Part shown: in pieces, positions 2,074 through 47,084 of the stretch
Layout: each line of letters opens with the position of its first letter
Position numbering within the stretch: the first letter of the stretch is position 1
From: Planctomycetaceae bacterium
GTDB taxonomy: Bacteria > Planctomycetota > UBA1135 > GCA-002686595
Assembly: GCA_050480685.1 (NCBI GenBank)
Contig: JBJHAV010000001.1
Location: 1-56,356 of the forward strand
Direction: 5' to 3'
DNA length: 56,356 nt
Notes under the pieces: model-generated
What the model saw: the letters and a program-made list of their open reading frames with translations, nothing else
Databases searched by the model: none
Told to the model about the DNA's origin: nothing
Position numbers and translations under genes: made by a program

Positions 2074-3150
2074 CTAAAAGCCGCCCGGGCGGGGCGGATC
2101 GGGCCGGGCGGCGCGGAACTCGACCTGGAGCTCCATACGACCGCTGAAAGTGACCGCCTCGAAGCTCTCGATCGGGCGAGTGGGCCCCGGCTGACGCAGA
2201 TCGCGGCGGTCCGTGCCCCGGTACGCGGCGGAGAGTGAAAGCCGCGCGGGGCGCGCCGCGCCCAGATTCCACAAAAGTTCACCCGTCAGCGCGAACACCA
2301 CTTCGGTGGAGCCCGCTTCCCCGCGGTCGATTTCGTCCACCCGCACCCACTCGGAGCGGCAACGCACGTCGCCCGCCAGGCGCAGTTCCGCGAAGCGCCC
2401 GTCCAACTGTTCCCGGCGCCCGAAGAGGGTCAACTCCAGGGGGCCCTCGGGATCGGCCAGGGTGCGCCACCAGCGTTCCAGGAAGGCGCGCGCCGGACCG
2501 TCGAGTTCGTCCGCCCCCTCGCCGTCCTCGAAGGCCAAGGGGCCGCCGGGCTGCCAGAGCTCCCCCAGCACACTCGCCGGCACGGTCCAGCGTTCGCCGA
2601 GCTCGCGCTCCGGGCCCACGCCGAGGGCGGCCAGGTCGCCGTCCGGGGTCAGCTCGCCGAGCCGCTCGGGATCGCCGCGGCGCAGCAGCTCCACGCCGAA
2701 GGGTTCAGCCGGGGAAGCGCGCCGGAAGGCGACTTTCGCCCGCTGGAAGGGGCTCTCGGCCCGCACGTCGAGGGGCAGGTGGGCGCGCTCGCCGGTCAAG
2801 GGATCCTCGTCCGGAACGGAGTGGCGGCGCTGCTCTTCGAGCCGCTCGAACTCGCGCTCGAAGGCCACAACGGCCCCGGTCCCGTCCCTTTCGAATGCGG
2901 AATCGAGCAGCACCCTTCGGCGCACCAGCCGCAGGTCTTGGGGCGAACCTTCCAGGGGCTGGCGGGGCCGGGTGCGCCCGTCCAGGGCCCCGTCCCGGAA
3001 CTCGGCGCGGTGCTCGAAGCGCAGCTCGAAGCGGCGCTCGACCGGGTCTCCGCCGCCGGGCGGAAGCTGGCCCGATCCGCGGCTCCCCAGGCCCAAAAGG
3101 GTGCCGGGAACGGCCAAGAGAACGAGCAGGGTCGCACCGCGCACTGTCAC
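2074..3150 (-). CDS. Secreted hypothetical protein
   Basis: 358-aa ORF with a GTG start and an N-terminal signal-like helix (ATLLVLLAVPGTLLGLG). Acidic/Arg-rich with coding-like composition. No family recognised. Confidence 0.55.
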   Translation of the reverse strand: MTVRGATLLVLLAVPGTLLGLGSRGSGQLPPGGGDPVERRFELRFEHRAEFRDGALDGRTRPRQPLEGSPQDLRLVRRRVLLDSAFERDGTGAVVAFEREFERLEEQRRHSVPDEDPLTGERAHLPLDVRAESPFQRAKVAFRRASPAEPFGVELLRRGDPERLGELTPDGDLAALGVGPERELGERWTVPASVLGELWQPGGPLAFEDGEGADELDGPARAFLERWWRTLADPEGPLELTLFGRREQLDGRFAELRLAGDVRCRSEWVRVDEIDRGEAGSTEVVFALTGELLWNLGAARPARLSLSAAYRGTDRRDLRQPGPTRPIESFEAVTFSGRMELQVEFRAARPDPPRPGGF

Positions 3151-3227: not shown

Positions 3228-3938
3228 TTGGAAACCCGCATCGCCTTCGAGATCCTGGCGCAGCCGGACGATTCCACCTGCGGGCCCACCTGCCTGCAGG
3301 CGGTGTACGGCTTCTACGGCGATGCGCTGCCCCTGGAACAGGTGATCGCGGAGGTGCCGCCCCTGGAGCACGGGGGCACCCTGGCCGTGCTGCTCGCCAA
3401 CCACGCCCTGGCGCGCGGCTACGAGGCGCGCATCCACACCTTCAACCTGCAGGTGTTTGATCCCTCCTGGTTCGAAGCGCCGCTGACCGCCATGCCCGAG
3501 CGGCTCGAAGAGCAAATCCGCGTCTCGCGCAACCCCAAGAAGCGTTTGGCTTCGCGCGCCTACGTGGAGTACCTCGCTCGGGGAGGCGACGTGCAGTTCA
3601 CCGACCTGACCACCGGCCTCCTGCGGCGCTATCTCAAACGCGGGCAACCGATTCTGACGGGCCTCAGCGCCACGTTCCTGTATCGCTGCAAACGCGAGCA
3701 CGGCGAGCCCCTCCGTTTCGACGACGTGCGCGGCAATCCCCAGGGCCACTTCGTGGTGCTGTGCGGCTACGACTCGGAGACGCGGCGGGTGCTGGTGGCC
3801 GATCCGCTGCTCAGCAATCCCCTGGGACGCGACCACTATTACGAGGTCGACATCGACCGGCTGATCAACGCGATTTTGCTCGGCATCCTGACCTACGACG
3901 CGAACCTGCTGCTGCTGCGCCCACGCGGCACGGACTGA
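3228..3938 (+). CDS. Peptidase C39-like / papain-fold cysteine peptidase domain protein
   Basis: DDSTCGPTCLQAVYGFYG (catalytic Cys context) and GHFVVLCGYD (His context). The only start candidate after the divergent gene is TTG at 3228, so the start is uncertain. The stop lies 2 nt before the next gene. Confidence 0.65.
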   Translation: METRIAFEILAQPDDSTCGPTCLQAVYGFYGDALPLEQVIAEVPPLEHGGTLAVLLANHALARGYEARIHTFNLQVFDPSWFEAPLTAMPERLEEQIRVSRNPKKRLASRAYVEYLARGGDVQFTDLTTGLLRRYLKRGQPILTGLSATFLYRCKREHGEPLRFDDVRGNPQGHFVVLCGYDSETRRVLVADPLLSNPLGRDHYYEVDIDRLINAILLGILTYDANLLLLRPRGTD

Positions 3939-3940
3939 AC

Positions 3941-5410
3941 ATGCCCCTGCTCCTGGTCGTCGACAATCCGTCCAATTGGAACCTGGAGATCCCCGGAGTC
4001 GACGTGGTCAAGGCCAGGTCGTACCTCTCGGACCCGGCCTACAGCGAGCTGCGCGGAGTGAAGCTCTTCAATCTCTGCCGCTCCTACGCCTACCAGAGCC
4101 TGGGTTATTACGTGTCGTTGCTCGCCGAGGCGCGTGGACACCGCGCCCAGCCCAGCGTGGCCGCCATCCAGGACATGCGCTCCCAGGCCGCCACGGCGAC
4201 GATCTCGGACGATCTGGACCGCCTGATCCAAAAGACCCTGGGCGGACTGCGCGCCGAGGAACACACGATCAGCATCTACTTCGGCCGCTCGCTCACGAAA
4301 CGGGACCAGCGTTTGGCGGCCACCCTGTGCAACCAGTTCCAGGTGCCCCTGCTGCGCGCGCGCTTCGAACGCCACAAGGACGGCAGTTGGCACCTGGTCC
4401 AGGTGCGCCCGATTCCGGCCTCGGAGATTCCCCAGAGCCACCGGCCCTTCGTGGTCGAGGCCGCCACGAACTACTTCCAGAACGACTCCTGGAGCCGCAA
4501 GCGCCGGGTGCGTCCGCGCGCCTACCTGGCGGTGCTGCACGATCCGGAGGAAGAAAGCCCGCCCTCCAACAAACGCGCCCTGGGGCGTTTCCTAAAGGTC
4601 GCCAAGGAGCTCGACATCGCCGCCCAGCTCATCACCAAAGGCGATTTCGCGCACCTGGCCAGTTACGACGCGCTGTTCATCCGCACAACGACCTACGTCA
4701 ACCACTACACCTGGCGTTTCGCCCGGCGCGCCGCGGCCGAGGGCCTGGTGGTGATCGACGACCCCCAGTCGATCATGCGCTGCACGAACAAGGTTTATCT
4801 GGCCGAATTGCTCGGCCGCCACCAGATTCGCACGCCGCGCACCATGATCGTGCACGAGGGTAACCGCGGGCAGGTGGCCGCAACCTTGGGTTTGCCCTGT
4901 GTGCTCAAGCAACCCGACAGCGCGTTTTCGATCGGCGTGGTCAAAGCGCGTGACGAAGCCGATCTGGAGCGTCACTTGGACCATCTGCTGGGCGAATCCG
5001 ATCTGGTCATCGCCCAGGAGTTTTTGCCCACGGACTACGACTGGCGCGTGGGCATCTTCGACAAAAAACCGCTCTACGTCTGCCGCTACTTCATGGCCAA
5101 GGGCCACTGGCAGATCATCAGCCGTGAGAGCGGCAAGGAGACCGACTACGGCGCGGTCGAAACACTGGCCGTGGAGGATGCACCCCGCAACGTGGTGCGC
5201 ACCGCACTCAAGGCGGCCAACCTGATCGGTGACGGTCTCTACGGGGTCGATCTCAAGCAGTCGGGCAAAAAGGTCTACGTGATCGAAGTGAACGACAACC
5301 CGAACCTGGATGCGGGCTTCGAGGACAAGGTGCTAGGCGAAGGCCTGTACCGCACGATCCTGGAAGGTTTTTTGCGGCGCGTGGAAGCGCGCGGGAGCGA
5401 ACGGCGATGA
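3941..5410 (+). CDS. RimK-type ATP-grasp ligase with a ~200-aa N-terminal extension domain
   Basis: The C-terminal half has ATP-grasp hallmarks (LPCVLKQPDSAFSIGVVKA, IAQEFLPTDYDWRVGIF, GVDLKQSGKKVYVIEVNDNP). ATG at 3941. Confidence 0.85.
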   Translation: MPLLLVVDNPSNWNLEIPGVDVVKARSYLSDPAYSELRGVKLFNLCRSYAYQSLGYYVSLLAEARGHRAQPSVAAIQDMRSQAATATISDDLDRLIQKTLGGLRAEEHTISIYFGRSLTKRDQRLAATLCNQFQVPLLRARFERHKDGSWHLVQVRPIPASEIPQSHRPFVVEAATNYFQNDSWSRKRRVRPRAYLAVLHDPEEESPPSNKRALGRFLKVAKELDIAAQLITKGDFAHLASYDALFIRTTTYVNHYTWRFARRAAAEGLVVIDDPQSIMRCTNKVYLAELLGRHQIRTPRTMIVHEGNRGQVAATLGLPCVLKQPDSAFSIGVVKARDEADLERHLDHLLGESDLVIAQEFLPTDYDWRVGIFDKKPLYVCRYFMAKGHWQIISRESGKETDYGAVETLAVEDAPRNVVRTALKAANLIGDGLYGVDLKQSGKKVYVIEVNDNPNLDAGFEDKVLGEGLYRTILEGFLRRVEARGSERR

Positions 5411-6648
5411 GCGCGCGGGAACGGGGGCCCTTGAGCCTGTTCGAGGGATACGGCATCGAACTGGAGTACATGGTGGTGGATGCGCAGGGGCTGGACGTGG
5501 CCCCGATCGTGCCCGAGCTTTTGGCCGACGCAACCGGCGAGCCGGGGGCCTGCGACGTGGAGCGCGGCAAGGTGGCTTGGTCGAACGAGCTCGCCGCCCA
5601 CGTGGTCGAACTCAAGACCAACGGCCCGGCCCCGACCTTGGAGGGCTTGGCCGCCGCCTTCCAGGCCGACGTGGACGAGATCGAGCACCTGCTCGCGCGC
5701 CGCGGCGCGCGCCTGCTGCCCGGAGCGATGCACCCCTGGATGGATCCAAAGCGCGAGACGCGGCTCTTCCCGGGCGAATACAACGAGGTTTACCGCACCT
5801 TCGACCGCATCTTCGATTGCCGCCACCACGGCTGGGGCAACCTGCAGAGCACCCACATCAACCTGCCCTTCGCGAACGACGAAGAGTTCGCGCGCCTGCA
5901 CGCCGCGGTGCGCGTGGCGCTACCGATCCTGCCCGCGCTGGCGGCTAGTTCGCCGGTGATGGACGGCGCGCCCAGCGGCTTTTTGGACAACCGCATGCGC
6001 GTCTATCGCGGCAATGCGCGCCGGGTGCCCCAGGTGAGCGGTCATGTGGTGCCCGAACCCATGGGCAGCCGCGCCCAATACGAAGGCGAACTGCTCGGTT
6101 CGATCTTCGCGGCCCTCGAGCCCCATGATCCCGAGGGTGTGCTGCGCCACGAGTGGGCCAACGCGCGCGGGGCGATCGCGCGCTTCGACCGCATGGCGAT
6201 CGAAATCCGCATCCTCGACATCCAAGAGTGCCCCCTGGCGGACCTGGCGGTGGTGCAGGCGGTGGTCGCCCTGGTGCGCGGCCTGATGGAAGGCCGCTTC
6301 GGCGATCCGGCGCGTTTTGATGCCCTGGCGACCGAAACCCTGGCCGCGGAGTTGTGGCGCACGGTGGACGCGGGCGAGCGCGCGCGCATCGAGAGCCGCG
6401 AGTACCTGGAATCCTTGGGTTGGCGCGGCGCTGCGCCCGAGGCCGGCGAGTTGTGGCGGCACGTTTTGGAGCGCTGCGCGCCCATCGGCGGGGCCGAGGG
6501 CGAGGCCCTCGGTGTGCTGCTCGCGGAGGGTCCGCTGGCGCGGCGGCTGGAGCGGCGGCTGGGGCCCTCGCCCTCCCGTGCAGAACTGACCGAGGTCTAC
6601 GGCGAATTGGCGGACTGCCTGCGGGACGGGAGGCTGTTGCGTGCGTAG
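5407..6648 (+). CDS. Glutamate-cysteine ligase family 2 (GCS2 / YbdK-like carboxylate-amine ligase)
   Basis: N-terminal GYGIELEYMVVD and overall GCS2-like layout. ATGA overlap with the upstream ATP-grasp gene. Confidence 0.8.
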   Translation: MSARERGPLSLFEGYGIELEYMVVDAQGLDVAPIVPELLADATGEPGACDVERGKVAWSNELAAHVVELKTNGPAPTLEGLAAAFQADVDEIEHLLARRGARLLPGAMHPWMDPKRETRLFPGEYNEVYRTFDRIFDCRHHGWGNLQSTHINLPFANDEEFARLHAAVRVALPILPALAASSPVMDGAPSGFLDNRMRVYRGNARRVPQVSGHVVPEPMGSRAQYEGELLGSIFAALEPHDPEGVLRHEWANARGAIARFDRMAIEIRILDIQECPLADLAVVQAVVALVRGLMEGRFGDPARFDALATETLAAELWRTVDAGERARIESREYLESLGWRGAAPEAGELWRHVLERCAPIGGAEGEALGVLLAEGPLARRLERRLGPSPSRAELTEVYGELADCLRDGRLLRA

Positions 6649-7366
6649 GCGCGGGGCGCCGGCCCTCGTGCTGAGCGCCGAACACGCGTCGCCCCGGGTG
6701 CCCGCCCACCTGCGCGCGGCCTTCGCCGCCGCCGGGCTGCGGGCCGAGGGGCACCGGGCCTTCGACCCGGGCTCGCGCGCGATCGCCCTGGGACTCTCGC
6801 GGGCCTTCGATGCGCCGCTCTCCCTCGGCCAAGTGACGCGCCTGGTGGTCGACCTGAACCGCTCGATCGGGCACCCGCGACTCTTTTCGGCGGCGACGCG
6901 GGGCCTGGGCGCGGAGGCGCGGGAGGAGCTGATCGAGAGTTATTGGCGTCCCTTCCGGGCCGAGGTCGAAGCGCGGGTGGAGGCGGCGACCGCGTGCGGT
7001 CCGGCCCTGCATCTGAGCCTGCATTCCTTCACGCCGGAGCTGGACGGGGAGGTGCGGGAGGTGGATCTGGGCTTGCTCTACGACCCGGCACGGCCCCTGG
7101 AACGGGCCCTGGCGCAGGCCTGGCGGCGCTCCCTCGCGGCCGCGGCCCCGGGCCTGCGGGTGCGTTTCAATCGGCCCTACCGGGGCGCGGCGGACGGGCA
7201 CACCACCGCCCTGCGCCGGGTTTTCCCGGCCGAGCGCTACGCCGGGCTGGAACTGGAGGTCAACCAGGCCCTGATGCCCGGCGGGGTGGCCCCCAGGGGC
7301 CTGCGGGCGGCCCTGGAGCGCTCCCTCCGGGAGCTTCTGACGCATCGCGAGCTATATAGTTGTTGA
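6641..7366 (+). CDS. N-formylglutamate amidohydrolase (FGase) family hydrolase
   Basis: VLSAEHASPRVP, VVDLNR and LHLSLHSFTP motifs typical of the FGase family. GTG start overlapping the GCS2 stop by 8 nt. Confidence 0.75.
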   Translation: MRRRGAPALVLSAEHASPRVPAHLRAAFAAAGLRAEGHRAFDPGSRAIALGLSRAFDAPLSLGQVTRLVVDLNRSIGHPRLFSAATRGLGAEAREELIESYWRPFRAEVEARVEAATACGPALHLSLHSFTPELDGEVREVDLGLLYDPARPLERALAQAWRRSLAAAAPGLRVRFNRPYRGAADGHTTALRRVFPAERYAGLELEVNQALMPGGVAPRGLRAALERSLRELLTHRELYSC

Positions 7367-7391
7367 CTTTCGCAACTGTAGAGCCGATACT
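7363..7391 (+). promoter_or_regulatory. Candidate sigma70-type promoter (TTGACT-17 nt-GATACT) for a leaderless or near-leaderless arsR-family transcript, overlapped by an imperfect inverted repeat
   Basis: TTGACT at 7363-7368, GATACT at 7386-7391, ATG at 7398, and no Shine-Dalgarno in between. ATAGTTG (7356-7362) and CAACTGT (7373-7379) form a 6/7 inverted repeat over the -35 element. Confidence 0.35.
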
Positions 7392-7397
7392 TCCCCC

Positions 7398-7844
7398 ATG
7401 CCGATCGAAACGAGCGACGCCGGGGAGCTCAACCTGCTGCCGGAGGTCCCGGCCGCGGATGGGCTCGGGCACGGCCACTCACAGGGGCACGGGCACGAGG
7501 GCGAAGAAGGCACCTGCGAAGACGGCACCCACCGCCCGCGCGGCGCCGCCAGCCACGGGGAAGAAGCCTTCGAGCGCGCCGTGCGCATCTTCAAGGCCCT
7601 GGGCGACCTCAAGCGCCTGCAATTGCTCGAGCTGCTCGTGCGCGGCGAAGCCTGCGTGACCGAGCTGGCCGACAGCACCGGGGAAGCGCTGCCAGCCATC
7701 AGCCAGCGTCTGCGCCTCTTGCGCTCCGAAGACCTCGTGCGCGGTCGGCGCGACGGCAAACACGTTTTCTATTCCGTCTCCGACGGCCACGTGGCGGCGC
7801 TGGTGCTCAGCGCCCTCGACCACGCCGCGGAGCTCCAACCCTGA
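7398..7844 (+). CDS. ArsR/SmtB-family metalloregulator with an alpha5 (DxHx10HxxE) site and a His-rich N-terminal tail
   Basis: Winged-helix core (LGDLKRLQLLELLVRGEACVTELADSTGEALPAISQRLRLLRSEDLV). SDGHVAALVLSALDHAAE matches DxHx10HxxE exactly. N-terminal GHGHSQGHGHEGEEG. Confidence 0.85.
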   Translation: MPIETSDAGELNLLPEVPAADGLGHGHSQGHGHEGEEGTCEDGTHRPRGAASHGEEAFERAVRIFKALGDLKRLQLLELLVRGEACVTELADSTGEALPAISQRLRLLRSEDLVRGRRDGKHVFYSVSDGHVAALVLSALDHAAELQP

Positions 7845-7864: not shown

Positions 7865-8212
7865 ATGGCCTGCAAAGACACCCACGCCTCCCACTCCCAC
7901 ACCCACGGCAAGGACTGCGGCCACGTCGCCGTGCAACACGACGGGCACGTCGATTACCTGCACGACGGCCACCTGCACCACCCCCACGGGGACCACGTGG
8001 ACGAACACCGCCTGGCGGTCGGCGGCGAGAACCCCGCCGACTGCACGCCGAAGCACGCCTGCGACGGCCACGAAGCCGGCCACCGCCATGGCCCCGACTG
8101 CGGCCACCCGGCCGTGCCCCACGGGGACCACACCGACTACCTGGTGGACGGGCACCTGCACCACCCCCACGGCTCGCACTGCGACCACCACGGCGCCGTG
8201 CGCCTGGCCTGA
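7865..8212 (+). CDS. Cytoplasmic His-rich metal-binding protein with an internal duplication
   Basis: 115 aa, of which I count 28 His and 6 Cys. Two copies of CGHxAVxH(D/G)(G/D)HxDYLxDGHLHHPHGxH. No signal peptide. Starts 20 nt after the ArsR-family gene. Confidence 0.75.
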   Translation: MACKDTHASHSHTHGKDCGHVAVQHDGHVDYLHDGHLHHPHGDHVDEHRLAVGGENPADCTPKHACDGHEAGHRHGPDCGHPAVPHGDHTDYLVDGHLHHPHGSHCDHHGAVRLA

Positions 8213-8302: not shown

Positions 8303-9949
8303 TTAGCGGGGCGCGCGGGCCGGAGCTTGGCGCCGACGGGGAGCGTTTTCGGCGTCCTCCAGCCCTTCGGCCGGGTCGGTGTAGACCCAGGGCTCGGCCC
8401 GCGCGGCGGCGGCCAAGGCCAACTCCTCGACCAACAGGACGAGGCGCGCCATCGAGCCGAACTCGACCTTCTCCCAGGTATCCGTGGGCCGGTGGTAGTC
8501 CGGGTGCCCGTGGGCGTTGGTGAAGAACAGCGCCGGCACCTGGGCCGCCAGGAACGACGCGTGGTCGGAGCGCGCGGAGATCGAACGCGACGGCACCAGT
8601 TCCAGCGGAGAGCGGGCGAAGTGCGGCGCCAACCAGTCGCCGAGCCCCGCGGAGGTGCGCTCGCCCTGCACGCTCACGCGCTCTTCCCGGATGCGGCCAA
8701 CCATGTCCAGATTGATCATGAAAGCGTGCGTTTCGATCGATCGGATCGGTTCGGCGACGTAATGGCGCGATCCCAAGAGACCCGATTCCTCCGCGTCGAA
8801 GAGCAGCAGCAGCAGGGTTCGCCGGGGCTGGTCCTCGGGCCACTCGGCGACGCGCCGGGCGAGGCGCTCGGCCAGCATCAGGACACTCGCGGACCCGCTG
8901 GCGTTGTCGTCCGCCCCCGGGTGCAAAACACCGCCATCGGCCGGTGATCCGAAGCGGCCGTTGCCCACATGGTCCAGGTGGGCGCCGACCACGATGATCT
9001 CCTCGGCCAGCCCGCCGCTGCCCGGCAACAGGGCGCCGAGGTTTTGAGCCGGCACGCGTGTGCGCGCCAGCTCCGCGGCCAAGCGGACTTCGAGGCCCAA
9101 GGGCTGGATCCCGCCCTTTTCATCGGCCGCACGCGTCAACGCTGCGAAGTCACCACCGGCGGCGGCGACGAGCCGCGTGGCGCCTTCCGCGGTCAGGTGC
9201 ATGACCGGCACGCGCACCGCCATCCGGCCGGCTTCCTCGGGTGTCATGATGCGCCGCGAACGGGGATCGAAGGACCCCGGCGGGTTGGCGACGAGCACCG
9301 CGGCCGCGCCGCGTTCGGCGGCGGCGCGCACCTTGTCCGCCAGGCCGGCGCGCGGGGACCAGTTGCCGCTCTCGGTCCAGCGGCTGCGGCCGGCTTCATT
9401 GCGCGGCTCGAAGCGCACGATGAGCGCGATGCGTCCGTCCAGGCGCTCGTCACCTGGAAAACTCGCGTAACCCTCGGGACCGTTCTGGATCCCATAACCG
9501 CAGAAGACCAATTCCCCGGCGGCCTGGCCGGAGCTGCCCAGGCCCAGGGCGTTGAACTCCACGCGGCCGTTCAACTCGATCTCGCCGGCGGCCAGGTGCT
9601 GGGAAACGAGATCCACCGGCCCCGGGTAATCGAAATCTTGGCGCCATTTCCCGTCGAAGGCAGGCTGGGCGCCGCTCGCTGCGAGGAACATCTGCGCGTA
9701 GTCGCGCGCGCGCTCCATACCCACGGTGCCCGGTGTGCGTCCCTCGAAGAAGGGGCTCGTCAGCACGATCACGTGTTCGCGCAGGCGCTGCTCCAAGAGC
9801 GCCAGGTCGAGCTCGTCGGGATGCGCGCCGGCGGCGGACTCTTCGCTGTCCGCGAGGGTGGAGGCCGGCCCGAGGGATGCACCCGCCACCGGCCAGGGCA
9901 GGAAGAGGGCGCAGAGCAGCAGGACCTGTAGCACGCGGCTGTGGAGCAT
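8303..9949 (-). CDS. M28-family aminopeptidase with a PA domain, secreted
   Basis: VGAHLDHVG, HPGADDNASGSA, LFDAEESGLLGSRHY, INLDMVGR and SDHASF metal-ligand motifs. Signal peptide MLHSRVLQVLLLCALFLPWPVAGA from the ATG at 9949. The ORF-track extension to 10084 is unlikely to be real. Confidence 0.85.
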   Translation of the reverse strand: MLHSRVLQVLLLCALFLPWPVAGASLGPASTLADSEESAAGAHPDELDLALLEQRLREHVIVLTSPFFEGRTPGTVGMERARDYAQMFLAASGAQPAFDGKWRQDFDYPGPVDLVSQHLAAGEIELNGRVEFNALGLGSSGQAAGELVFCGYGIQNGPEGYASFPGDERLDGRIALIVRFEPRNEAGRSRWTESGNWSPRAGLADKVRAAAERGAAAVLVANPPGSFDPRSRRIMTPEEAGRMAVRVPVMHLTAEGATRLVAAAGGDFAALTRAADEKGGIQPLGLEVRLAAELARTRVPAQNLGALLPGSGGLAEEIIVVGAHLDHVGNGRFGSPADGGVLHPGADDNASGSASVLMLAERLARRVAEWPEDQPRRTLLLLLFDAEESGLLGSRHYVAEPIRSIETHAFMINLDMVGRIREERVSVQGERTSAGLGDWLAPHFARSPLELVPSRSISARSDHASFLAAQVPALFFTNAHGHPDYHRPTDTWEKVEFGSMARLVLLVEELALAAAARAEPWVYTDPAEGLEDAENAPRRRQAPARAPR

Positions 9950-10125
9950 GGTGTCGGGGTGTCGGGCGGAGGTTGGCTTCGCAGGGTTCGAGTGCATCTT
10001 AGGGGCACGGGCCCGAATCGGGGCAGCGCCGCACTCGGGAGCGCGGGAGGGGTGGTCCTGGCCCCCGGCACGCGCTCCGGCCACACTCTCGGAACATCGC
10101 GCGAGGCTCGCCCCGCGCCCGACAC

Positions 10126-11163
10126 ATGGCCACCATCGCGATCCAACCGGACGACTACACCCTGCCCGGCGCGCCCGCCGAGGCGGACGCCGCTTCGCCG
10201 CGCTGGGCCCGCGGACTCGAGCGCCTAGGCCATCGGGTGCGCTGGGTCGACGTGCGCCGCGCGGACGTATTGGAACAACTGGCCGGCTGCGACGGCTTTC
10301 TGTGGCGCTTCGCCCACTTCGCGGGCATGCCAGCGATCGCGCGCCGTTTGTTGCCGGTGCTCGAACGCACCCTGGGCTTGGTGATTTACCCGAGTCTCGA
10401 CTCGTGGATCGCTTTCGACGACAAGCCGGCCCAGGCCTTGGCCCTGGCGGCCGCCGGCATTCCGTCGCCGCGCAGTTGGACCTGGTACGACGAAGCCTCC
10501 GCTCTCCACTGGCTCGACGCAGCGAACTATCCGCTTGTGATGAAACTCGCCGGCGGAGCGAGTTCCACCAACGTGCGACTCGTGCGCACGGCGGAAGAAG
10601 GGCGCATCCTGACCCGCCAGGCCTTCCGCCGGGGCCTGCGGCGTCTCAAGGGCGACGCCGCGCTGGTCGGAACCGCGGGTCGCTTGCGCCGGGCGCTGGA
10701 CATTTTGGACCACGCGCTGCACGCGTCGAATCAACGCCGCTGCGCGCCCGAGGCCGGCTACGTTCACTTCCAGGAGTTTTTGCCGGGCAACACCTTCGAC
10801 ACGCGCGTCACCGTCATCGGCGCGCGCGCCTTTGCATTTCGGCGCTTCAACCGGCCCGGTGACTTCCGCGCCAGCGGCAGCGGTCACATCGACTGGGACC
10901 CGGCGGCTATCGATTCGCGCTGTTTGGACTTGGCACGCGACACGGCCCGGCGGCTCGGCATGGAATCCTGCGCGACCGATCTGCTTTACGACGGTGAAGC
11001 TCCACGCATCGTGGAGTTCAGCTACACCTTCGGGCCGAGTTTGCGGCTCTGCCCGGGGCACTGGCTGGAAACAGGGACGGGTTGGCAGTGGCAGGAAGGG
11101 CGCATGGACCCGGAGGAGGCCCAACTGGAGGGGTTTCTGGCGCGCCTGGAGCAACGCCCGTGA
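10126..11163 (+). CDS. ATP-grasp domain protein in a polysaccharide-biosynthesis context
   Basis: PLVMKLAGGASSTNVRLV, YVHFQEFLPGNTFDTRVTVIG and ATDLLYDGEAPRIVEFSYTFG fit the ATP-grasp fold. GTGA overlap with the downstream glycosyltransferase. Confidence 0.65.
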   Translation: MATIAIQPDDYTLPGAPAEADAASPRWARGLERLGHRVRWVDVRRADVLEQLAGCDGFLWRFAHFAGMPAIARRLLPVLERTLGLVIYPSLDSWIAFDDKPAQALALAAAGIPSPRSWTWYDEASALHWLDAANYPLVMKLAGGASSTNVRLVRTAEEGRILTRQAFRRGLRRLKGDAALVGTAGRLRRALDILDHALHASNQRRCAPEAGYVHFQEFLPGNTFDTRVTVIGARAFAFRRFNRPGDFRASGSGHIDWDPAAIDSRCLDLARDTARRLGMESCATDLLYDGEAPRIVEFSYTFGPSLRLCPGHWLETGTGWQWQEGRMDPEEAQLEGFLARLEQRP

Positions 11164-12437
11164 GCGCGCTCGCCGGACGGCGACTCGTGTTCCTGATCGA
11201 TTCGCCGCGCCTGGGCGGCGCCGAGCACCAGGCGCTGCTTCTGGCCTCGCAGCTCCGCGAACACGGGGGCGCGGAGTGTTCGTTCTTCGCCCTGCGCGAT
11301 GCGCCCACGGGAGAGGATCCGGTGCGCGAGCGCTGCTCGGCAAGCGGACTGCCGCTTTTCATCGCGCGGGAGCCCATTCCCGAGCGCTGGAGCGCGTGGC
11401 CGCGCGGCCTGGACGGCTTGGCGCGGCAACTGCGCGAACTGCGCACCGAAGTGCTGCTCGGCTACTGGAACCGGCCCAATGTGGCCGGGGCCCTGGTTTG
11501 GCGCGCGGCCGGCGCGAGGCTCTTCGTCTGGGGGCAGCGGGATGAGGGCCGCGACCGACCGCCCCCTTGGCTCGAGCGTCTCGCGCTGCGCCGCACACCG
11601 CACTTTGCCGCGAACTCGTCCAGCTCCCTGCGTTTCCTGCTCGGCCGGCTCGCCTTGCCGCGGGTGCGTGTGAGCAAACTTCCGAACGGCTTCGTGCCCG
11701 CCGCGCCCCTGGAATCCCGCGAGAGTTGGCGCGAACGGCTGGGACTCCAAGGCGACACCTTCGCGGCGACCATGATCGCCAACCTGCACGCTCACAAGGA
11801 TCACAGCACCCTGCTGGAGGCCTGGGCCCGGGTGGTGGCGGAGTGCGCAGCGGGCGGGCCTACGCCTCAACTCCTGCTCGCCGGTGCACCCGGCCCCCGG
11901 GAAATCGCCTTGCGGCGGCGCGCGGCGGCAGCGGACCTCATGGGCTCGGTGCACTTCCTGGGCCGGGTCGACGACGTCGCGGGATTGCTCGGGGCCTGCG
12001 ATCTGTGTGTGCACAGCTCCCGCCGCGAGGGTTTGCCCAACGCCGTGCTCGAAGCGATGGGCGCCGGCTTGCCGGTGGTCGGCACGGACATCCGGGCCAT
12101 GCGCGAAGTGCTCGGCCCCTTGGCCGAAGCTCGTTTGGCCGCTCCCGGGAATGCGGCCAGCTTGGCGAAACGCATCCTAGAGCTGATCGGCATGCAAGCC
12201 CCCCATCGACAGCGCCTGGGCCAAACCTCGAAGGAACGCGCCATCTCCCACTTCAGCCCCGAGCGTTCGCGCCTCCGGGCCGAACGGAACCTCGCGCGCG
12301 CCCTGACCCAATCCTCGCCTGCGGACAACACCGCCGCTTCCCTGGCCAACGACATGGCCGGCTATCGGCGCATCGCTCCCTTGGATCGTCTAGCCCGCAA
12401 ACTCACACGCCGCTGGCGCGACCTTCCGCGCGCTTGA
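11160..12437 (+). CDS. Glycosyltransferase family 4 (GT-B, GT1 superfamily)
   Basis: N-terminal LVFLIDSPRLGGAEHQ. C-terminal SSRREGLPNAVLEAMGAGLPVVGTD (E-x7-E type motif). GTG at 11160 overlaps the upstream stop. Confidence 0.8.
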   Translation: MSALAGRRLVFLIDSPRLGGAEHQALLLASQLREHGGAECSFFALRDAPTGEDPVRERCSASGLPLFIAREPIPERWSAWPRGLDGLARQLRELRTEVLLGYWNRPNVAGALVWRAAGARLFVWGQRDEGRDRPPPWLERLALRRTPHFAANSSSSLRFLLGRLALPRVRVSKLPNGFVPAAPLESRESWRERLGLQGDTFAATMIANLHAHKDHSTLLEAWARVVAECAAGGPTPQLLLAGAPGPREIALRRRAAAADLMGSVHFLGRVDDVAGLLGACDLCVHSSRREGLPNAVLEAMGAGLPVVGTDIRAMREVLGPLAEARLAAPGNAASLAKRILELIGMQAPHRQRLGQTSKERAISHFSPERSRLRAERNLARALTQSSPADNTAASLANDMAGYRRIAPLDRLARKLTRRWRDLPRA

Positions 12438-12638: not shown

Positions 12639-13544
12639 TCAACGGACCGGGGCGGCCCGTTCCTGGGGACCGACGCGAATGGGGGGCGCAGTGGACTCGC
12701 GGCCGTCCGCGTTCGCGGCGGGGGGATGCTCGGACGGCGCGACCGACAAACCATCGAGACCATTCGCACTGCGCACGCCACCCTGTCGGATGAGGTCCAT
12801 CAGGCGCTGTTCCGCATCCGCGGCCGGGGGATGCTCCGGGTGGTGCAGGTGGTACACAATCGCCCGGTTGAGCAGCGGGGCGAAGGTTCTGCCAGCCCGC
12901 TGCAGGCGCAGTTCCAGTTCGCGATCCTCGCGCCTGGCCGGGGCGTCGTGGTTGTAGCCGTTGATTTCCCCAAAGACGTCGGCGCGGATCGAGAAGTTCA
13001 CCCCCATCAGCTTGCGCGGCCGGGGGTGGAAGATCCGCGTGAGCGCGCTCGGCAACCGCAGTCCAAGGCCGTAGCGGCGGGTGTCCCCCGCAAGCGCGCT
13101 CCACAGGGTCGGCCCCAGCCAGCGCTCCAGGCGCCCGTGGTCGACCCACTCCCGATCGACGCGTGCGGTCAGTGCCGGGCCGAGTTTGACGCGCCGCCCG
13201 CAAAGCACGTCCGCACGCCGGTGAGCGGCCAGGTGATCGGCGACGAAGTGGCGATGGGGAATCGAGTCCCCGTCCAAGAAGATCAGGCGCTCCGCGCGGG
13301 CCTGACGGGCGGCCTGATTGCAGGCGCGCATCTTGCGAAAGCCCTGGTCCGCCTGCCACAGGTGCTCGAGTCCACAGGGAAACTGCGGGCGCCACGCATC
13401 GATGACCGCGCGTGTTTCGGGCCCCGATCCATCATCCGCCACAAGGACCTGGGCCGGCACTTGCACCTGGCGCGCCAAACCCGAGAGAACCAGGTCGAGC
13501 TCACGGGGCGCATCAAAGGTGCTGACGATGACGGCGGCTCTCAT
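12639..13544 (-). CDS. Glycosyltransferase family 2
   Basis: MRAAVIVSTFDAPRELDLVLSGLARQ, LVADDGS and IFLDGDSIP (DxD). ATG at 13544 forms an ATGA overlap with the upstream GT2 gene. Confidence 0.8.
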   Translation of the reverse strand: MRAAVIVSTFDAPRELDLVLSGLARQVQVPAQVLVADDGSGPETRAVIDAWRPQFPCGLEHLWQADQGFRKMRACNQAARQARAERLIFLDGDSIPHRHFVADHLAAHRRADVLCGRRVKLGPALTARVDREWVDHGRLERWLGPTLWSALAGDTRRYGLGLRLPSALTRIFHPRPRKLMGVNFSIRADVFGEINGYNHDAPARREDRELELRLQRAGRTFAPLLNRAIVYHLHHPEHPPAADAEQRLMDLIRQGGVRSANGLDGLSVAPSEHPPAANADGRESTAPPIRVGPQERAAPVR

Positions 13545-14491
13545 GGTTTCCCCAGGAGCTCGGCCAAACGACCCTCGGCCTGCCAACACTTGCGCCTGGG
13601 CCTCAAGCTGGCCGGTCCGCGTTCCAGTGCCCAGCGGGTGCGATAACAGGCCCACACGAGGCACTGCTCGGCGACCTTCAGGGCCGCCATCGGCGCATTC
13701 GGACGGGGACGCATGCGCACGGACGCACGCCCATACCCCAGGTGCCAACGGCGCAGATACTCCCAGCCGACCTTCTCGGGTTGGAGATGGTGATCGACCG
13801 CGGCCCCGGGCAGGTAGCGCACCGCCCGGCCGGCCGCGAGCAACCGGGAGACCAGGTGGGTCTCTTCGCCCGGGACGAGTTCACGCCCCCAGCCCAAGCG
13901 CGGATCGAAACCACCCAGTTCCGCCAGTGCGGCGCGGCGCACCGCCATGTTGCCGCCCCGGGGAGCTCCCACCGGTCCCTTGGGCACCACGTCGCACTCC
14001 TCCTCGCCGTGGTGGTAATAACCCGTGGATCCGCACCCTTCGCACTCGACCGCCCGGCGGTAGTCCTCGGGTGTGCCGGGCGGATAGACCGGCAGCACCG
14101 GCCCGCCCGCAGCCGCTAAACCGGGATCCGCGAAGGCGCGCTCCAGGGACGCGTACCAACCCCGTCGCGGGGTGACGTCGTCGTCGAGGAACACAAACAC
14201 TTCGGCGCCAAGCCCCTCGATGCCGCGATTGCGAGCGTGGGAGAGTCCGAGCCGAGGTTCGAGCAGCCCGTCCAGGGGCCATGGGTAGGCCCCGCGCCGC
14301 GAGTCGAGCACTTGGGCGGCGCCGGCTTCTTCGCCGTTCTCAACGACCCGCACGCACCAGGCTTGGGCGGCCTCGCCGGCCAGCTCCGCCAAACGGTCCA
14401 GCAAACGAGCCAAGGAGCCGACCCGCCGGCGGGTGGGGATCACCACGCCGAAATCCACCTGGGACCCGGCTGCGACCTGGCTGTCACCCAT
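13541..14491 (-). CDS. Glycosyltransferase family 2
   Basis: VVIPTRRRVGSLARLL, SHARNRG and VFLDDDVTP (DxD). Confidence 0.8.
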   Translation of the reverse strand: MGDSQVAAGSQVDFGVVIPTRRRVGSLARLLDRLAELAGEAAQAWCVRVVENGEEAGAAQVLDSRRGAYPWPLDGLLEPRLGLSHARNRGIEGLGAEVFVFLDDDVTPRRGWYASLERAFADPGLAAAGGPVLPVYPPGTPEDYRRAVECEGCGSTGYYHHGEEECDVVPKGPVGAPRGGNMAVRRAALAELGGFDPRLGWGRELVPGEETHLVSRLLAAGRAVRYLPGAAVDHHLQPEKVGWEYLRRWHLGYGRASVRMRPRPNAPMAALKVAEQCLVWACYRTRWALERGPASLRPRRKCWQAEGRLAELLGKP

Positions 14492-14694
14492 GCCCCTAGG
14501 TTATTCCACTTTGCGACTTGGACCGCCGCCCCGAAGCTGGGGACCAAGGCGCATTCCCCTGGCTGGCAGCCCCGCCGATGGAGCCGCGGGGGAGCCCCGG
14601 GGGATCCCCGTGGCCGGGCTCACGGTCCCGAGGGCCCCCAAGTGCTCCACGCCGGTCCCCGGGGCTTCCCCCAGAAAGGCCCCTCCCGGACCGC

Positions 14695-17592
14695 TCAATC
14701 CGAGCTCGGCGGGCCCGGGGCCAAAAATGTCTGGACCTGCCCCCGCGGAAGCCCGTCCGCGTCGTACCAAGAATCCAGCACAACCCCGTGGACCGGGTCA
14801 GCCAAGCGCTGCAACAGCGTCGCCCCGAGCGGCCCGGCCATGCCCGGATCCGTCGCCCCGTCCCGCAGCAACCCGGCCAAGGCCGGATCGAGCAGCGCGT
14901 GGCTGCTGGAAGCCTGGCTGATGCCATCCGGGCGCACCAGCCGGTCCAGATCGAAGACGGCGCCCGCCGGGTCGTAGAAACTCGCCGGCGCTTGATTGAA
15001 GGGTTTGCGGTCGGGGTTCGTGTCCAGCGGATTCACGGGCCGCCCCTGGGCGTCGAAAACGAACAGACCGCTGCCGAGTCCGGCAACCATGTGCACCCAG
15101 AAAGGAGAGTCAAGCTGGTTGCCGGTGTTCCGGCCGATGTGTGTCTTGAGCAACTCCCAGTCCAGATCGTCGTAGTTGCCGGAGGCGATCGCCTGGCGGA
15201 AGTCCTCGTACTCGGGCCCCCAGTTCTCCAGGGCGTTTTCGGTCAGGTGGCATGCGACGCAGTAGCGCGGGCCTTCCATCTTTGGACCGACCTTGCCGCG
15301 GATCGAGTGCGCCATCAAGGCGTTGTGGGAGAGGGCCGGATAGGCCGCCGCCGGACTGTTGCCTTGACCCTTGCGATCGGAGAACGCGAAGACCTGGGAC
15401 AGGTCGCCGTTCAAATCGCGGTAGCGGAAGAAGGTTTTGGTGTTGGCGCTGACCTGGGCAATCTTCCCGCGTGAGTTGATGCCAAGCTGGAAGGGCACCG
15501 GAGACTGGTAGACGAAGTCCGCGAAGCGTTCGCGGAACACGATGCGTTCCCCGGTGATGTTCGAGAAGTTGTTCCCGGTGTTGTACTCCCCTTCCAGGTG
15601 GCACCCCATGCAGGTGTTGGTCCACGCCGAGTGGCAGGTCGCACAATCCATCCGATCCGTGTGGCTGAATCCGGTGTGCGGATTGCCCACCTGCTGGGGC
15701 CCGAGGCCCGTGGAGGGATCGCCGTCGATGCGCCCCATCGCGTAGGAAGCCGCGACGCTGTAGAGGGGCGTTTCGTCGAAGGGGTTGGTCACGCCGGTAT
15801 CGACGGTGACGTCCCGTGTCTGCGGCACGAAGTGCTTGGCGCCAGTGACCTTGCTGTAGAGATAAACGTGCCCATCGGCCTCCCGGCGCACGTGGCGCAG
15901 CACGTTGCCGCGCGTGTCGGTGAGGTGCTGACCGGGCTGCCCCAGGTAGTTTGTGCCCGCGACCGTCTCCGCGTAGTGATCCACACCACCGTGACAGCTC
16001 TCGCAGGAGATCGCCACCGCCTGCTCCATGCGCGAACGAATCGGGCTCAGTCCACTGCCGAGCGTACCTCCGTGCAGTTCGTGGGACCCGTGGCAATCGA
16101 TGCAGCCCATACCGGCCTCGTAGTGGACGTCCGGAGGCGTGTCGTCCCGCCCATCTCCGTCGTAGTCCTCGAAGGATAGGTACTGATGGAAGTTGCGACC
16201 GTTGAAGGTGTTGTTGCCGACTTCCGGATCGAACAGGCGCGGATCGTCCTTGGTGTTCGTGAAGGAGACCGGATTGGCCGGATACTGCCGGTTGCGCCTC
16301 ACATCCTGGTTTTGGTCGAGCCGAATGCCCCAGTACTGCATGACGGTGCGGTTCGAACCCTGGTGGCAACCTGCGCAGGTGTGGTCGTCGATGCCTCCCA
16401 CATGCACACCCGAGTCGAGGGTGCGCGCCACACTTACGATCCGGTGTGCCCGCACGTGGGACCGTTCCCCGGACGCGATGTTGTCCGGGTTGAGAGGCTC
16501 CAGCGGATTCATGTGCGGGTCCTTGCTGCCCGTGCGTCCGCCTAGGCTGTAGGGCATGTGACACGCCGAGCATCCGGAGGACCGGAAGTCGCCCGCCCGG
16601 TTGTTGGCTCCGGCACTGCCCAGGTGGCAATCGCCGCACGTGAAGGCCACCTGTTCGTGGAACAAACGGGCGAGCTCCGAGTCGCTGATGACCCGCCCAT
16701 CGGCGAGCTGCTGGTTGGCGAGCAACGCGGCGCTGTAGGCCTGGTTGTTGTGGATCTTGTTCGGGTGGGTCGAGTTGTGCTGGCTGTGGACCGGATGTTC
16801 GATCAAACGCGGAACCTGCCCGGGTTCGGCTGTTTGCGCCGAGTAGTTGGGGTCGCTGACCGCGCGAAAGCCCAGGTCCGCCGCGGTGTCCAGATGCAGC
16901 CCCTGATTCTCCGCAACGTAGTTCTCGATGCCCGCCGAGAAGGAAGCGCCCGACAGGACCCCCGCCGAAGTGGCCAGCAAGCTGTTGGTCACCAACTCGG
17001 AGTGCGGTGCGTGGCACTCTCCGCAGCCGCGGCCGAGTTGCGTCACCCGCAGGTCGCCGGGATTGATGAACTGCAGGTAGTCGATGGCAGTGTAGGTTTT
17101 GCCGTCCACCGTGTAGTCCGGGAACTTGTCGATCCCGGCCAAGGTGCGACGGTTGAAGAAGGCCAATGCGTTGGTCTTTTGCTTCTCGCGGTCGCCGATC
17201 TGGGGCGGAGGCGGAACGTGGGCCGCGAACTGGTCGCTGGCGCTGCCATCGCCACCATGGCAAACCGTGCAGTCCATGCTCTCCGCGCCGGGAAACGGAT
17301 GCGGGTTTTCGATCCCAGGACCCGAGTAGTTCGCATCCAACGAACCGTTGTGGCACAGCATGCACGAGCTGGCCGTTTGGGGCTGCAAGCTACTGGTTTC
17401 TCCGGGAGTCCCCAGCCCGCAGCCAGTGCTGCCAACAAGCAACAGCGCAAGTCCCAGGGCGAACCCCGCGCCTCTCAGCGCACCCAAGCGCTGCCGCCTG
17501 TCCGCTTCTGCTCCGATCCGGCCTCGCATACCTCTCCCCTCCCTTGCTTCCCAAGCGACCGGCGCGTCCCCACACACCCGGCCTCGCTTCAT
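14695..17592 (-). CDS. Large multihaem c-type cytochrome (11 CxxCH), probably a lipoprotein
   Basis: I count 11 CxxCH motifs (CMLCH, CTVCH, CGECH, CGDCH, CSACH, CAGCH, CIDCH, CESCH, CATCH, CMGCH, CVACH). Signal with a lipobox-like LLLVGSTGC. An alternative start at 17529 (MRGRIG...) is possible. Confidence 0.85.
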   Translation of the reverse strand: MKRGRVCGDAPVAWEAREGRGMRGRIGAEADRRQRLGALRGAGFALGLALLLVGSTGCGLGTPGETSSLQPQTASSCMLCHNGSLDANYSGPGIENPHPFPGAESMDCTVCHGGDGSASDQFAAHVPPPPQIGDREKQKTNALAFFNRRTLAGIDKFPDYTVDGKTYTAIDYLQFINPGDLRVTQLGRGCGECHAPHSELVTNSLLATSAGVLSGASFSAGIENYVAENQGLHLDTAADLGFRAVSDPNYSAQTAEPGQVPRLIEHPVHSQHNSTHPNKIHNNQAYSAALLANQQLADGRVISDSELARLFHEQVAFTCGDCHLGSAGANNRAGDFRSSGCSACHMPYSLGGRTGSKDPHMNPLEPLNPDNIASGERSHVRAHRIVSVARTLDSGVHVGGIDDHTCAGCHQGSNRTVMQYWGIRLDQNQDVRRNRQYPANPVSFTNTKDDPRLFDPEVGNNTFNGRNFHQYLSFEDYDGDGRDDTPPDVHYEAGMGCIDCHGSHELHGGTLGSGLSPIRSRMEQAVAISCESCHGGVDHYAETVAGTNYLGQPGQHLTDTRGNVLRHVRREADGHVYLYSKVTGAKHFVPQTRDVTVDTGVTNPFDETPLYSVAASYAMGRIDGDPSTGLGPQQVGNPHTGFSHTDRMDCATCHSAWTNTCMGCHLEGEYNTGNNFSNITGERIVFRERFADFVYQSPVPFQLGINSRGKIAQVSANTKTFFRYRDLNGDLSQVFAFSDRKGQGNSPAAAYPALSHNALMAHSIRGKVGPKMEGPRYCVACHLTENALENWGPEYEDFRQAIASGNYDDLDWELLKTHIGRNTGNQLDSPFWVHMVAGLGSGLFVFDAQGRPVNPLDTNPDRKPFNQAPASFYDPAGAVFDLDRLVRPDGISQASSSHALLDPALAGLLRDGATDPGMAGPLGATLLQRLADPVHGVVLDSWYDADGLPRGQVQTFLAPGPPSSD

Positions 17593-17667
17593 CGGACCAG
17601 GGGGTGGATCCCTTGAGGCAACCTGTCTACCCGGAAGATTTTTCCGCCCCGCCGCGATGGCCGCCGC

Positions 17668-24531: not shown

Positions 24532-24618
24532 CGCGTGTTATGGGTTTCCAGGACCTTGGGGAGTGGTCCTGGAATCCTCTGGCGCTCGAGCCTCCCCATG
24601 AGCGTGCCCTCCCCGGGC

Positions 24619-25311: not shown

Positions 25312-25346
25312 TCGTGTGTCTAGATGGAACGGATCCGCGTGCGGCC

Positions 25347-43955: not shown

Positions 43956-44092
43956 CGCCCCACCATGGGGCCGCGCCAGGCCGGGCGCAAGTCGACACTC
44001 CCACCGGGCGCCCTCCCCGCTCCATACTGCGCGCTGCGGCGGGGCAGGGCCCGCGCCGCGCCGAAGTTCCCATCCCCGACGGAGATTCTTAG

Positions 44093-46896: not shown

Positions 46897-47084
46897 CAGG
46901 GAGGTCGCCGAGCCGAGGCTTCGCAAGCGCTGACGGGCGGCGTGTTGCGAAGGTCAAGCACCCCCTCGCTGCCCGTGGGTGGGGGAGCTCACTTTCGCGG
47001 GCGTAACGCAATCCAGCCCGGGGATGTGTTGTTATCTTGTACCGACACCGTAGGTGCGCTCTCGGGCGGCCGCGGTGTCACCCC

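Follow-up and report, generated by a model that had tools for sequence, protein, structure and literature searches.

Enzymes of the RimK family add glutamate to carboxylates, those of the GCS2 family join the gamma-carboxylate of glutamate to an amine, and free amino acids and N-acyl-glutamate are the substrates of the GCS2 and FGase (N-formylglutamate amidohydrolase) families. In animals, RIMKLA and RIMKLB were reportedly identified by Collard in 2010 as N-acetylaspartylglutamate (NAAG) and beta-citrylglutamate synthases, the N-acetylaspartate being made, it is said, by a GNAT-family enzyme. An amidoligase survey by Iyer et al. (Mol Biosyst, 2009) is said to be the source of the RLAN domain definition and to describe neighborhoods of the kind examined here. 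In the bacterial rimB-rimK pair the protease determines the length of the poly-glutamate added to RpsF (PMC10092738, PMC11957791), and MyfB (methylofuran), MptN and CofF are RimK-family ligases that glutamylate small molecules (PMC8141765). Here we analyze a compact cassette that unites a C39-like peptidase, an RLAN-RimK ligase, a GCS2 ligase and an FGase-family amidohydrolase within 56,356 nucleotides of DNA from a Planctomycetaceae bacterium (assembly GCA_050480685.1, contig JBJHAV010000001.1, positions 1 to 56,356), the whole of which we call the window. The cassette occupies positions 3228-7366, where the initial annotation had placed four packed genes, and open reading frames (ORFs), coding composition and Pfam matches all agreed with that placement:

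3228-3938, forward strand: C39-like peptidase gene, TTG start, 236 amino acids (aa)
3941-5410, forward strand: RLAN-RimK ligase gene, ATG start
3941-4495 (residues 1 to ~185), forward strand: RLAN domain of the ligase, basic, alpha+beta; Pfam RLAN, 5.1e-43
4508-5410 (residues ~190-489), forward strand: RimK/LysX-type ATP-grasp module of the ligase; Pfam RimK, 1.9e-10; TIGR00768, 8.4e-19
5407-6648, forward strand: GCS2 ligase gene, ATG start, 413 aa
6641-7366, forward strand: FGase-family amidohydrolase gene, GTG start, 241 aa

We compared the window with two sets of loci. The first comprised the 80 loci most similar to the window ligase on contigs of a one-genome-per-species GTDB set, and the second, reciprocal set comprised 80 loci from an independent metagenome collection with the peptidase as the starting point. 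Denominators are loci with sufficient flanking sequence, and fractions from the GTDB set describe the cassette-type clade, not all RLAN proteins. A C39-like gene stood directly upstream of the ligase in 69/77 GTDB loci and a GCS2 gene directly downstream in 62/71, with FGase after GCS2 in 40 of 64. The three-gene core of C39, RLAN-RimK and GCS2 was found in 55 of 63 loci and all four genes in 39 of 63. When the peptidase was the anchor, the ligase came next in 63/66 metagenome loci, followed by GCS2 in 31/36 and FGase in 14/32. Matched segments were spaced by median gaps of 20-36 nucleotides. The order C39, RLAN-RimK, GCS2 and, where present, FGase was kept in Planctomycetota, Bacteroidota, Pseudomonadota, Acidobacteriota, Verrucomicrobiota, Nitrospirota and Spirochaetota, at a cross-phylum identity of 50-62%, and the window follows it on one strand, with C39 directly upstream of the ligase, GCS2 directly downstream and FGase after GCS2. 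The recurrence of this order across dozens of unrelated genomes lies far outside what chance would give. Three genes form the conserved core, and FGase is an accessory. Gene-neighborhood conservation was a check proposed in the initial annotation, and co-conservation was strong from either anchor.

Carriers of the cassette or the ligase came from at least 7 phyla and included the culturable Blastopirellula marina, Thiobacillus thioparus, Pontibacter and Legionella adelaidensis. The last of these has the cassette, and its genes bear the names "RimK family protein", "glutamate-cysteine ligase family protein" and "N-formylglutamate amidohydrolase" from the Prokaryotic Genome Annotation Pipeline (PGAP).

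Clustering of all ORFs of at least 70 aa in the 80 GTDB loci revealed no fifth co-conserved gene and no co-conserved transporter, ATP-binding cassette (ABC) transporters included. Nor was any ORF of 20-120 aa conserved within 900 bp of either flank in the 80 loci, where we saw merely chance matches of Arg-rich low-complexity sequence; an apparent small-ORF cluster in 13 loci was an antisense ORF within the C39 gene. The absence of a precursor-peptide ORF, noted earlier for the window, was thus borne out. With neither a fifth gene nor a conserved short ORF, the cassette is self-contained, and the locus does not encode its substrate. We rejected a ribosomally synthesized and post-translationally modified peptide, graspetide or bacteriocin system, as there was no precursor gene, no fused or co-conserved ABC exporter, and the C39 protein was free-standing.

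The junctions between the genes are as tight as first described. A 2-nucleotide gap ("ac") separates the peptidase stop codon (TGA, 3936-3938) from the ligase ATG at 3941, the ligase and GCS2 genes overlap by 4 nucleotides (ATGA, 5407-5410), and the GCS2 and FGase genes overlap by 8 nucleotides (GTG at 6641, TAG at 6646-6648). Shine-Dalgarno-like sequences GGGAG (5393-5397) and GGGAGG (6628-6633) each lie within the preceding gene. The four genes are, as judged from the sequence, translationally coupled. All four were coding by composition, with a G+C fraction of 0.85-0.88 at third and 0.42-0.57 at second codon positions in a window of 65-73% G+C. The starts matched homologue N-termini in alignments for the peptidase, the ligase and FGase, and also the gene calls of a relative with a 76%-identical ligase and common upstream context (locus L084). 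No signal peptide or transmembrane segment was predicted in any of the four proteins, and all four are predicted to be soluble and cytoplasmic.

The family assignments made earlier for the four products also held. The peptidase matched Peptidase_C39_2 (Pfam, 4.4e-11), and its profile found the double-glycine peptidase domains of ComA and PCAT1 among PDB sequences (1e-4). Across 30 homologues Q12, C18 and H174 were invariant and D192 nearly so, which corresponds to the papain/C39 catalytic set. The hydropathy maximum (Kyte-Doolittle, 19 residues) was 1.82 and was confined to the C-terminal strand. By these features the product is a predicted papain-fold, C39-like cysteine peptidase of the cytoplasm. 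It shares its fold and the Gln/Cys/His/Asp catalytic set with ComA and PCAT1 but differs from them in being free-standing, cytoplasmic and ~90 aa longer, with no ABC exporter fusion and no leader-peptide gene nearby.

The extra N-domain of ~200 aa that had been noticed in the ligase corresponds to Pfam RLAN (residues 25-173). In 20 ligase homologues it carried the invariant motif NLCRSYxYQSxGYYVSLLAEARGH, and its isoelectric point is 8.9. The AlphaFold model of the full ligase had a mean predicted local distance difference test score of 82, and RLAN modelled alone scored 81. In Foldseek searches the best structural matches of the ATP-grasp part were LysX/ArgX (1.3e-15; template modelling (TM) score normalized by target 0.81-0.84), followed by RimK (1e-14; ~0.78), and residues ~190-489 are modelled as a complete RimK/LysX/ArgX fold. 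Searched on its own, RLAN matched only ATP-grasp proteins (synapsin, LysX, Asp1 kinase, MdnB), all weakly (E 3e-4 to 1e-2, TM 0.2-0.35), and a profile-profile comparison with the ligase's own ATP-grasp part gave a probability of 1.3%, so that an origin of RLAN as a degenerate ATP-grasp duplicate is unsupported. Against PDB sequences the ligase found RimK at 3e-8 as a single sequence and at 1.6e-11 as a profile. Residues K323, Q359, D437, E449 and N451, putative nucleotide and Mg ligands of the ATP-grasp module, were invariant in 20 homologues.

The poly-glutamate contacts of P. aeruginosa RimK served as the reference for the substrate site (PMC10092738). The equivalent of contact Arg64 is R248 of the ligase, within "DALFIRTTT", and is conserved; Arg189 could not be aligned, and that region instead has a LysX-like "HW" motif and an insertion. 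Since Arg64 is kept and the Arg189 region is replaced in this way, the ligase is a distinct clade of the RimK/LysX family. The N-terminal RimK contacts S7, R8 and S14 lie outside the ligase-RimK alignment, and we presume them not to be conserved, solely by reference to the E. coli RimK sequence. Homologues of the ligase made up at least 8000 clusters at 90% identity in public data. The best 120 listed were 57-76% identical, came from Planctomycetota, Omnitrophota, Myxococcota and Gammaproteobacteria, and had "RimK family protein" as their sole name.

The third protein matched Pfam GCS2 (2.2e-33), and its profile reached YbdK (1r8g, 4.5e-4) and also plant GCL among PDB sequences. It retains the invariant residues G16/E18/E20 (G-x-E-x-E), N60/E61 with H65/E68 (N-E...H-x-x-E), R254 and R268, and is predicted to be a GCS2-family carboxylate-amine ligase with a glutamine-synthetase-like fold. 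The fourth protein matched Pfam FGase (1.4e-25); its profile found the uncharacterized Atu2144 (2odf) at 1.8e-38 and a true FGase (2q7s) at 1.5e-5 only. With invariant H15, D42, H124, H128, E204 and E206 as candidate metal ligands, the predicted product is an FGase-family amidohydrolase of the Atu2144 subgroup, an accessory of the cassette.

Membership in characterized families was judged by the curated NCBIfam cut-offs, and the bit scores were as follows:

rimK_fam: 68 against a cut-off of 143 (ligase)
LysX: 55.8 against 275.6 (ligase)
MptN: 50.2 against 350 (ligase)
CofF: 35.3 against 300 (ligase)
RimK equivalog (NF007764): 34.7 against 331 (ligase)
Glutathione synthetase (NF009110): 29.1 against 408
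YbdK family: 69.5 against 176 (GCS2 protein)
Cyanobacterial GshA (TIGR02048): 39.3 against 249 (GCS2 protein)
NF010043 (test for GshA/EgtA/GshB): 42.5 against 409
EgtA: 24.9 against 370.8 (GCS2 protein)

None of the four proteins reached the cut-off of any characterized family (RimK, LysX, GshA, GshB, EgtA or HutG), all matches falling far short, and the enzymes thus belong to no known pathway by these models. The FGase protein matched no NCBIfam model. It shares a Pfam family and the candidate metal ligands with HutG and Atu2144; we rejected histidine utilization by HutG because of the missing NCBIfam match, the distant 2q7s match and the absence of hut genes near the cassette. Cyanophycin synthetase was rejected as well, as the window ligase did not match TIGR02068 and the second ligase is GCS2, not Mur-like. 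Anti-phage defence was rejected too, as there was no PADLOC match among the four cassette proteins and two neighbors. The 56-kb window held no Rfam family at the gathering threshold, which speaks against a riboswitch or other RNA element, no tRNA gene and no rpsF.

Each of the described systems thus resembles part of the cassette. Like E. coli RimK and Pseudomonas rimABK, it has a RimK-family ATP-grasp ligase with a conserved Arg64 contact, a peptidase gene directly upstream and, by analogy, glutamate addition as its probable chemistry; unlike them it has the additional 185-aa RLAN domain, a C39/papain-like peptidase where RimB is retropepsin-like, and GCS2 and FGase genes besides. Like the glutathione route (GshA or a GCS2-type enzyme plus GshB), it pairs a glutamine-synthetase-fold carboxylate-amine ligase with an ATP-grasp ligase, but the latter is RimK/LysX-like rather than GshB-like and two dedicated hydrolases are attached. 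RIMKLA and RIMKLB may by analogy do what the cassette ligase does, placing glutamate on the carboxylate of an N-blocked acid, but are animal enzymes without RLAN, and the window ligase is paired with GCS2 instead of a GNAT. LysX/ArgX share the "HW" motif of the substrate loop and are the best structural matches, but no LysW-like carrier and no lysine or arginine biosynthesis genes lie near the cassette. MyfB, MptN and CofF belong to the RimK family too, but the cassette ligase falls far below the MptN and CofF cut-offs and has no cofactor biosynthesis genes in its neighborhood.

Several loci departed from the standard arrangement. In L012 a class-II amidotransferase/Ntn hydrolase (3757-4545 of that locus) takes the place of FGase, and in L066 a fusion of GNAT and CN_hydrolase (10763-12328) stands between GCS2 and FGase. 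The metagenomic locus L131 (6001-9632) has the C39-like peptidase followed by a circularly permuted ATP-grasp protein (CP_ATPgrasp_2) and an Alpha-E protein, a pair that stands instead of RLAN-RimK and GCS2, with a major facilitator superfamily transporter upstream. This is another predicted amidoligase system, one that shares the peptidase family with the cassette but uses other ligase families, and the pair is not part of the window cassette; the C39-like peptidase family would therefore partner amidoligases more generally. Elsewhere in the window, a GATase_4 class-II amidotransferase/Ntn-hydrolase gene (51080-51991, forward strand) is 30% identical (1e-27) to the FGase replacement of L012; it lies 44 kb from the cassette and is preceded by an extracytoplasmic function (ECF) sigma factor and a zinc-ribbon membrane protein.

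The ligase also occurs outside the cassette. About 10% of close homologues were stand-alone (Nitrosomonas, Nitrosospira, Gallionella), as were more distant full-length homologues of 44-45% identity in Azospirillum and in a P. aeruginosa plasmid record. The P. aeruginosa homologue has a short-chain dehydrogenase/reductase, an aminotransferase, a Glu/Asp ABC transporter and ggt as neighbors, a gene order that we take to be the PA1338-PA1347 region of PAO1, which would make the homologue PA1345. The literature mentions PA1345 solely under the name "hypothetical ATP-binding protein", together with a CpxR site. Searched with a profile built from RLAN only, the databases gave 956 representatives among 1.84 billion clusters at 50% identity, several with an N-terminal GNAT. 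These GNAT-RLAN-RimK proteins (~645 aa; P0198 and relatives) were 42-45% identical to the window ligase and made up most of the best 120 clusters listed, with named examples from Acholeplasmataceae, Izemoplasmataceae, Clostridia and Bacteroidales. Their genes were stand-alone among unrelated neighbors, including those at loci L085-L087. The best NCBIfam match of the fused GNAT was RimI (S18 acetylase), at 58.5 bits against a cut-off of 86.4. A link to the N-acetylglutaminylglutamine amide synthetase Ngg was dropped, the fusions having no match to an Ngg-type model and the plasmid search having given no Sinorhizobium record.

We propose that the cassette both makes and breaks down a small N-blocked, glutamate-containing peptide, in the cytoplasm and without the ribosome, by a logic like that of glutathione or NAAG, and we put the probability of this reading at roughly 0.45. 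GCS2 would activate the gamma-carboxylate of glutamate and couple this group with the amine of some amino acid X, giving gamma-Glu-X, as GshA, YbdK and EgtA do. RLAN-RimK would then phosphorylate the free alpha-carboxylate of the N-blocked acid and attach one or a few alpha-linked glutamates, as GshB adds Gly to gamma-Glu-Cys and the RimK-like NAAG synthase adds Glu to N-acetyl-Asp, with the basic RLAN domain holding the acidic substrate or product. The C39-like Cys peptidase would cut or transfer the peptide and so set its length or level, and the FGase-like metallo-amidohydrolase, where present, would take off a C-terminal or N-acylated glutamate and recycle it, so that both kinds of bond would be cleaved, by the peptidase and the FGase-type amidase between them. 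Analogy suggests the identity of the substrates, the sequence of steps and the role in the cell, which may be that of a compatible solute, a thiol or metal buffer or a nitrogen store.

Several lines of evidence are consistent with this proposal. All four proteins retain the invariant residues of their families at the positions expected for catalysis, and a GCS2 enzyme that joins through the gamma-carboxylate of glutamate, followed by a RimK-family enzyme that adds glutamate, would reproduce the logic of glutathione synthesis. As nothing else is co-conserved, whether gene, short ORF or transporter, the substrates would be ones generally available in the cell. The GNAT fusions suggest that the acyl substrate of RLAN-RimK may be an N-blocked amino acid, acetylated in the fusions and gamma-glutamylated through GCS2 in the cassette, and the fusions would unite both steps of NAAG synthesis in one protein. 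The extra amidases at L012 and L066 fit small-molecule amide chemistry. The initial annotation had cautiously suggested ribosome-independent synthesis of a glutamate peptide or of a glutamyl tail, and the sequence evidence supports that suggestion, in that the four genes are co-conserved elsewhere and the enzymes were not assigned to a known pathway with a defined product.

A number of observations weigh against a small peptide as the product. The substrates are assigned by family analogy, and no product has yet been seen. The nearest structural relatives of the ATP-grasp part, LysX/ArgX and RimK, act on protein C-termini, and C39-type peptidases usually cut peptides of at least 10 residues, not tripeptides. 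The linkage of peptidase to ligase is the tightest in the cassette and recalls the rimB-rimK pair that acts on S6, and identity as high as that seen across phyla is unusual for secondary metabolism. Moreover, the ligase occurs without GCS2 in some genomes, so GCS2 is not an obligatory supplier of its substrate.

Many of these same observations would suit a RimK/RimB-like writer and eraser that glutamylates a protein encoded elsewhere, the main rival reading, which we regard as rather unlikely, if well worth considering. A conserved cellular protein would receive alpha-linked glutamates at its C-terminus from RLAN-RimK, and the C39-like peptidase would shorten the added tail or uncover the end that accepts it. 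The glutamates themselves would be modified or recycled by GCS2 and FGase. Apart from the tight peptidase-ligase linkage, which mirrors rimB-rimK from both anchors, and the protein-directed structural relatives, the R248 equivalent of the Arg64 poly-glutamate contact is kept, the RLAN domain is basic, the operon has no substrate gene and its sequence conservation is very high, and the fused GNAT is nearest, though below cut-off, to the acetylase of S18, the ribosomal partner of S6. That resemblance to RimI may be generic GNAT similarity, however, and the ligase scores 34.7 bits where the RimK equivalog demands 331 and lacks an alignable R189. P. aeruginosa has a canonical RimK of solved structure in addition to its RLAN-RimK homologue, so the RLAN form is unlikely to be simply the S6 enzyme, and it is not obvious what GCS2 and FGase would do to a protein, their characterized relatives acting on small molecules. 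We think it very improbable that the cassette goes further and is a glutamate-based bacterial protein-conjugation system, comparable to Pup or ubiquitin tagging and spread across many Gram-negative phyla. RLAN-RimK may in that case glutamylate the C-terminus of a conserved protein and GCS2 may couple the new gamma-carboxylate to a lysine or other amine of the target, while the C39-like enzyme may process or deconjugate and FGase may trim the leftover glutamate; GCS2 and the Pup ligase PafA belong to one glutamine-synthetase-like carboxylate-amine ligase superfamily.

Synthesis and mobilization of a cyanophycin-like polyamide seems improbable to us. RLAN-RimK would polymerize alpha-polyglutamate while RLAN anchors the chain, GCS2 would attach amines or amino acids to its gamma-carboxylates, and the C39-like peptidase and FGase would depolymerize the product. 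RimK and MyfB do make long poly-glutamate chains, a basic RLAN and two hydrolases suit anchoring and stepwise depolymerization, and cyanophycin synthetase and cyanophycinase offer a parallel, in that the structures of CphA1 show an ATP-grasp and a second ligase joined to an anchoring domain at the N-terminus, and hydrolases dedicated to the polymer exist alongside. Yet the window ligase has no match to the cyanophycin synthetase model, no CphA N-domain was among the listed matches of the RLAN fold search, and GCS2 action on polymer side chains is not known, the distant PafA excepted; we know of no report of granules or polymer in organisms that bear the cassette. To a similarly slight degree we credit the idea that the cassette salvages or catabolizes gamma-glutamyl or N-acyl-glutamyl peptides taken up from outside, or that its genes are syntenic but share no product. 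Half of the enzymes are hydrolases, about half of the loci do without FGase, and ggt and a Glu/Asp ABC transporter are found close to the stand-alone homologue of P. aeruginosa. A purely degradative route, however, would have no use for two ligases that consume ATP, and no transporter is co-conserved. The stop/start overlaps and the cross-phylum synteny argue instead for a shared function.

The remaining features that we noted around the cassette and in the rest of the window are as follows:

2074-3150, reverse strand: 358-aa ORF divergent from the cassette, without Pfam or PADLOC match
7363-7391, forward strand: promoter-like site TTGACT-17-GATACT (1 site found, 0.2 expected)
7398-7844, forward strand: ArsR-family regulator with a His/Gly-rich N-terminus
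7865-8212, forward strand: 115-aa protein with two His-rich repeats, DCGH..V..H.(D/G)H(V/T)DYL(H/V)DGHLHHPHG(D/S)H
8303-10084, reverse strand: secreted-type peptidase with PA and M28 domains
10126-11163, forward strand: 345-aa ORF in which a RimK-like ATP-grasp signature is faintly visible (Pfam E 0.007; motif QEFLPGNTFDTRV)
14695-28588, reverse strand: large multihaem c-type cytochromes, one with an MtrC/MtrF-like domain; a fusion of ferredoxin and pyridine-nucleotide-disulphide oxidoreductase; cytochrome c maturation ResB/CcsA
42444-44114, reverse strand: two-domain PPK2 polyphosphate kinase
47007-49628, forward strand: Ser/Thr kinase fused to an FGE-sulfatase domain
49439-50200, forward strand: ECF sigma factor, PF07638 type

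The promoter-like site marks the downstream boundary of the cassette, just ahead of the ArsR gene (ATG at 7398). The ArsR and His-rich genes are probably a metal-sensing and metal-binding pair. The initial annotation had allowed for a functional link between them and the cassette, but an ArsR gene was near the cassette in only 2/80 other loci (L014 and L025, related Planctomycetaceae, upstream and divergent). That occurrence and the pair's own promoter-like site rule it out as a general partner, and any link of ArsR to the cassette is at most lineage-specific.

Upstream of the cassette, the 358-aa ORF has a 369-aa counterpart at the same place in L084, the closest relative, and none in other cassette loci; a divergent glycogen debranching enzyme gene further upstream is also present in that relative. 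Downstream, the PA and M28 architecture of the secreted-type peptidase, which is not conserved beside the cassette elsewhere, is presumably that of glutamate carboxypeptidase II, the enzyme that hydrolyses NAAG in animals. The 345-aa ORF overlaps the start of a GT4 glycosyltransferase (11082-12437), lies near a GT2 enzyme (13541-14500), and may encode another ATP-grasp ligase, a divergent one, as part of a glycan locus. The cytochrome region looks like an extracellular electron-transfer locus. The genes for PPK2, the kinase-sulfatase fusion and the PF07638-type sigma factor, taken with the high G+C content, suggest a host of Myxococcota or Planctomycetota type.

We found no experimental study of the cassette in the literature on RLAN (PF14401), on combinations of RimK, GCS2, C39 and FGase, or on PA1345. 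It is recognized in databases, as a Pfam RLAN family and PGAP family names exist, and the window adds a further copy of this widespread, database-recognized and biochemically undefined cassette, among the more widespread conserved enzyme cassettes that lack a known product. Our analysis reduces the problem to a three-gene core whose substrate is not encoded at the locus. If identified, the product would be a new glutathione- or NAAG-like metabolite with built-in turnover, or RimK-independent protein glutamylation, or a storage polyamide, and it would also give a function to RLAN and to distinct clades of GCS2, C39-like and FGase-like enzymes.

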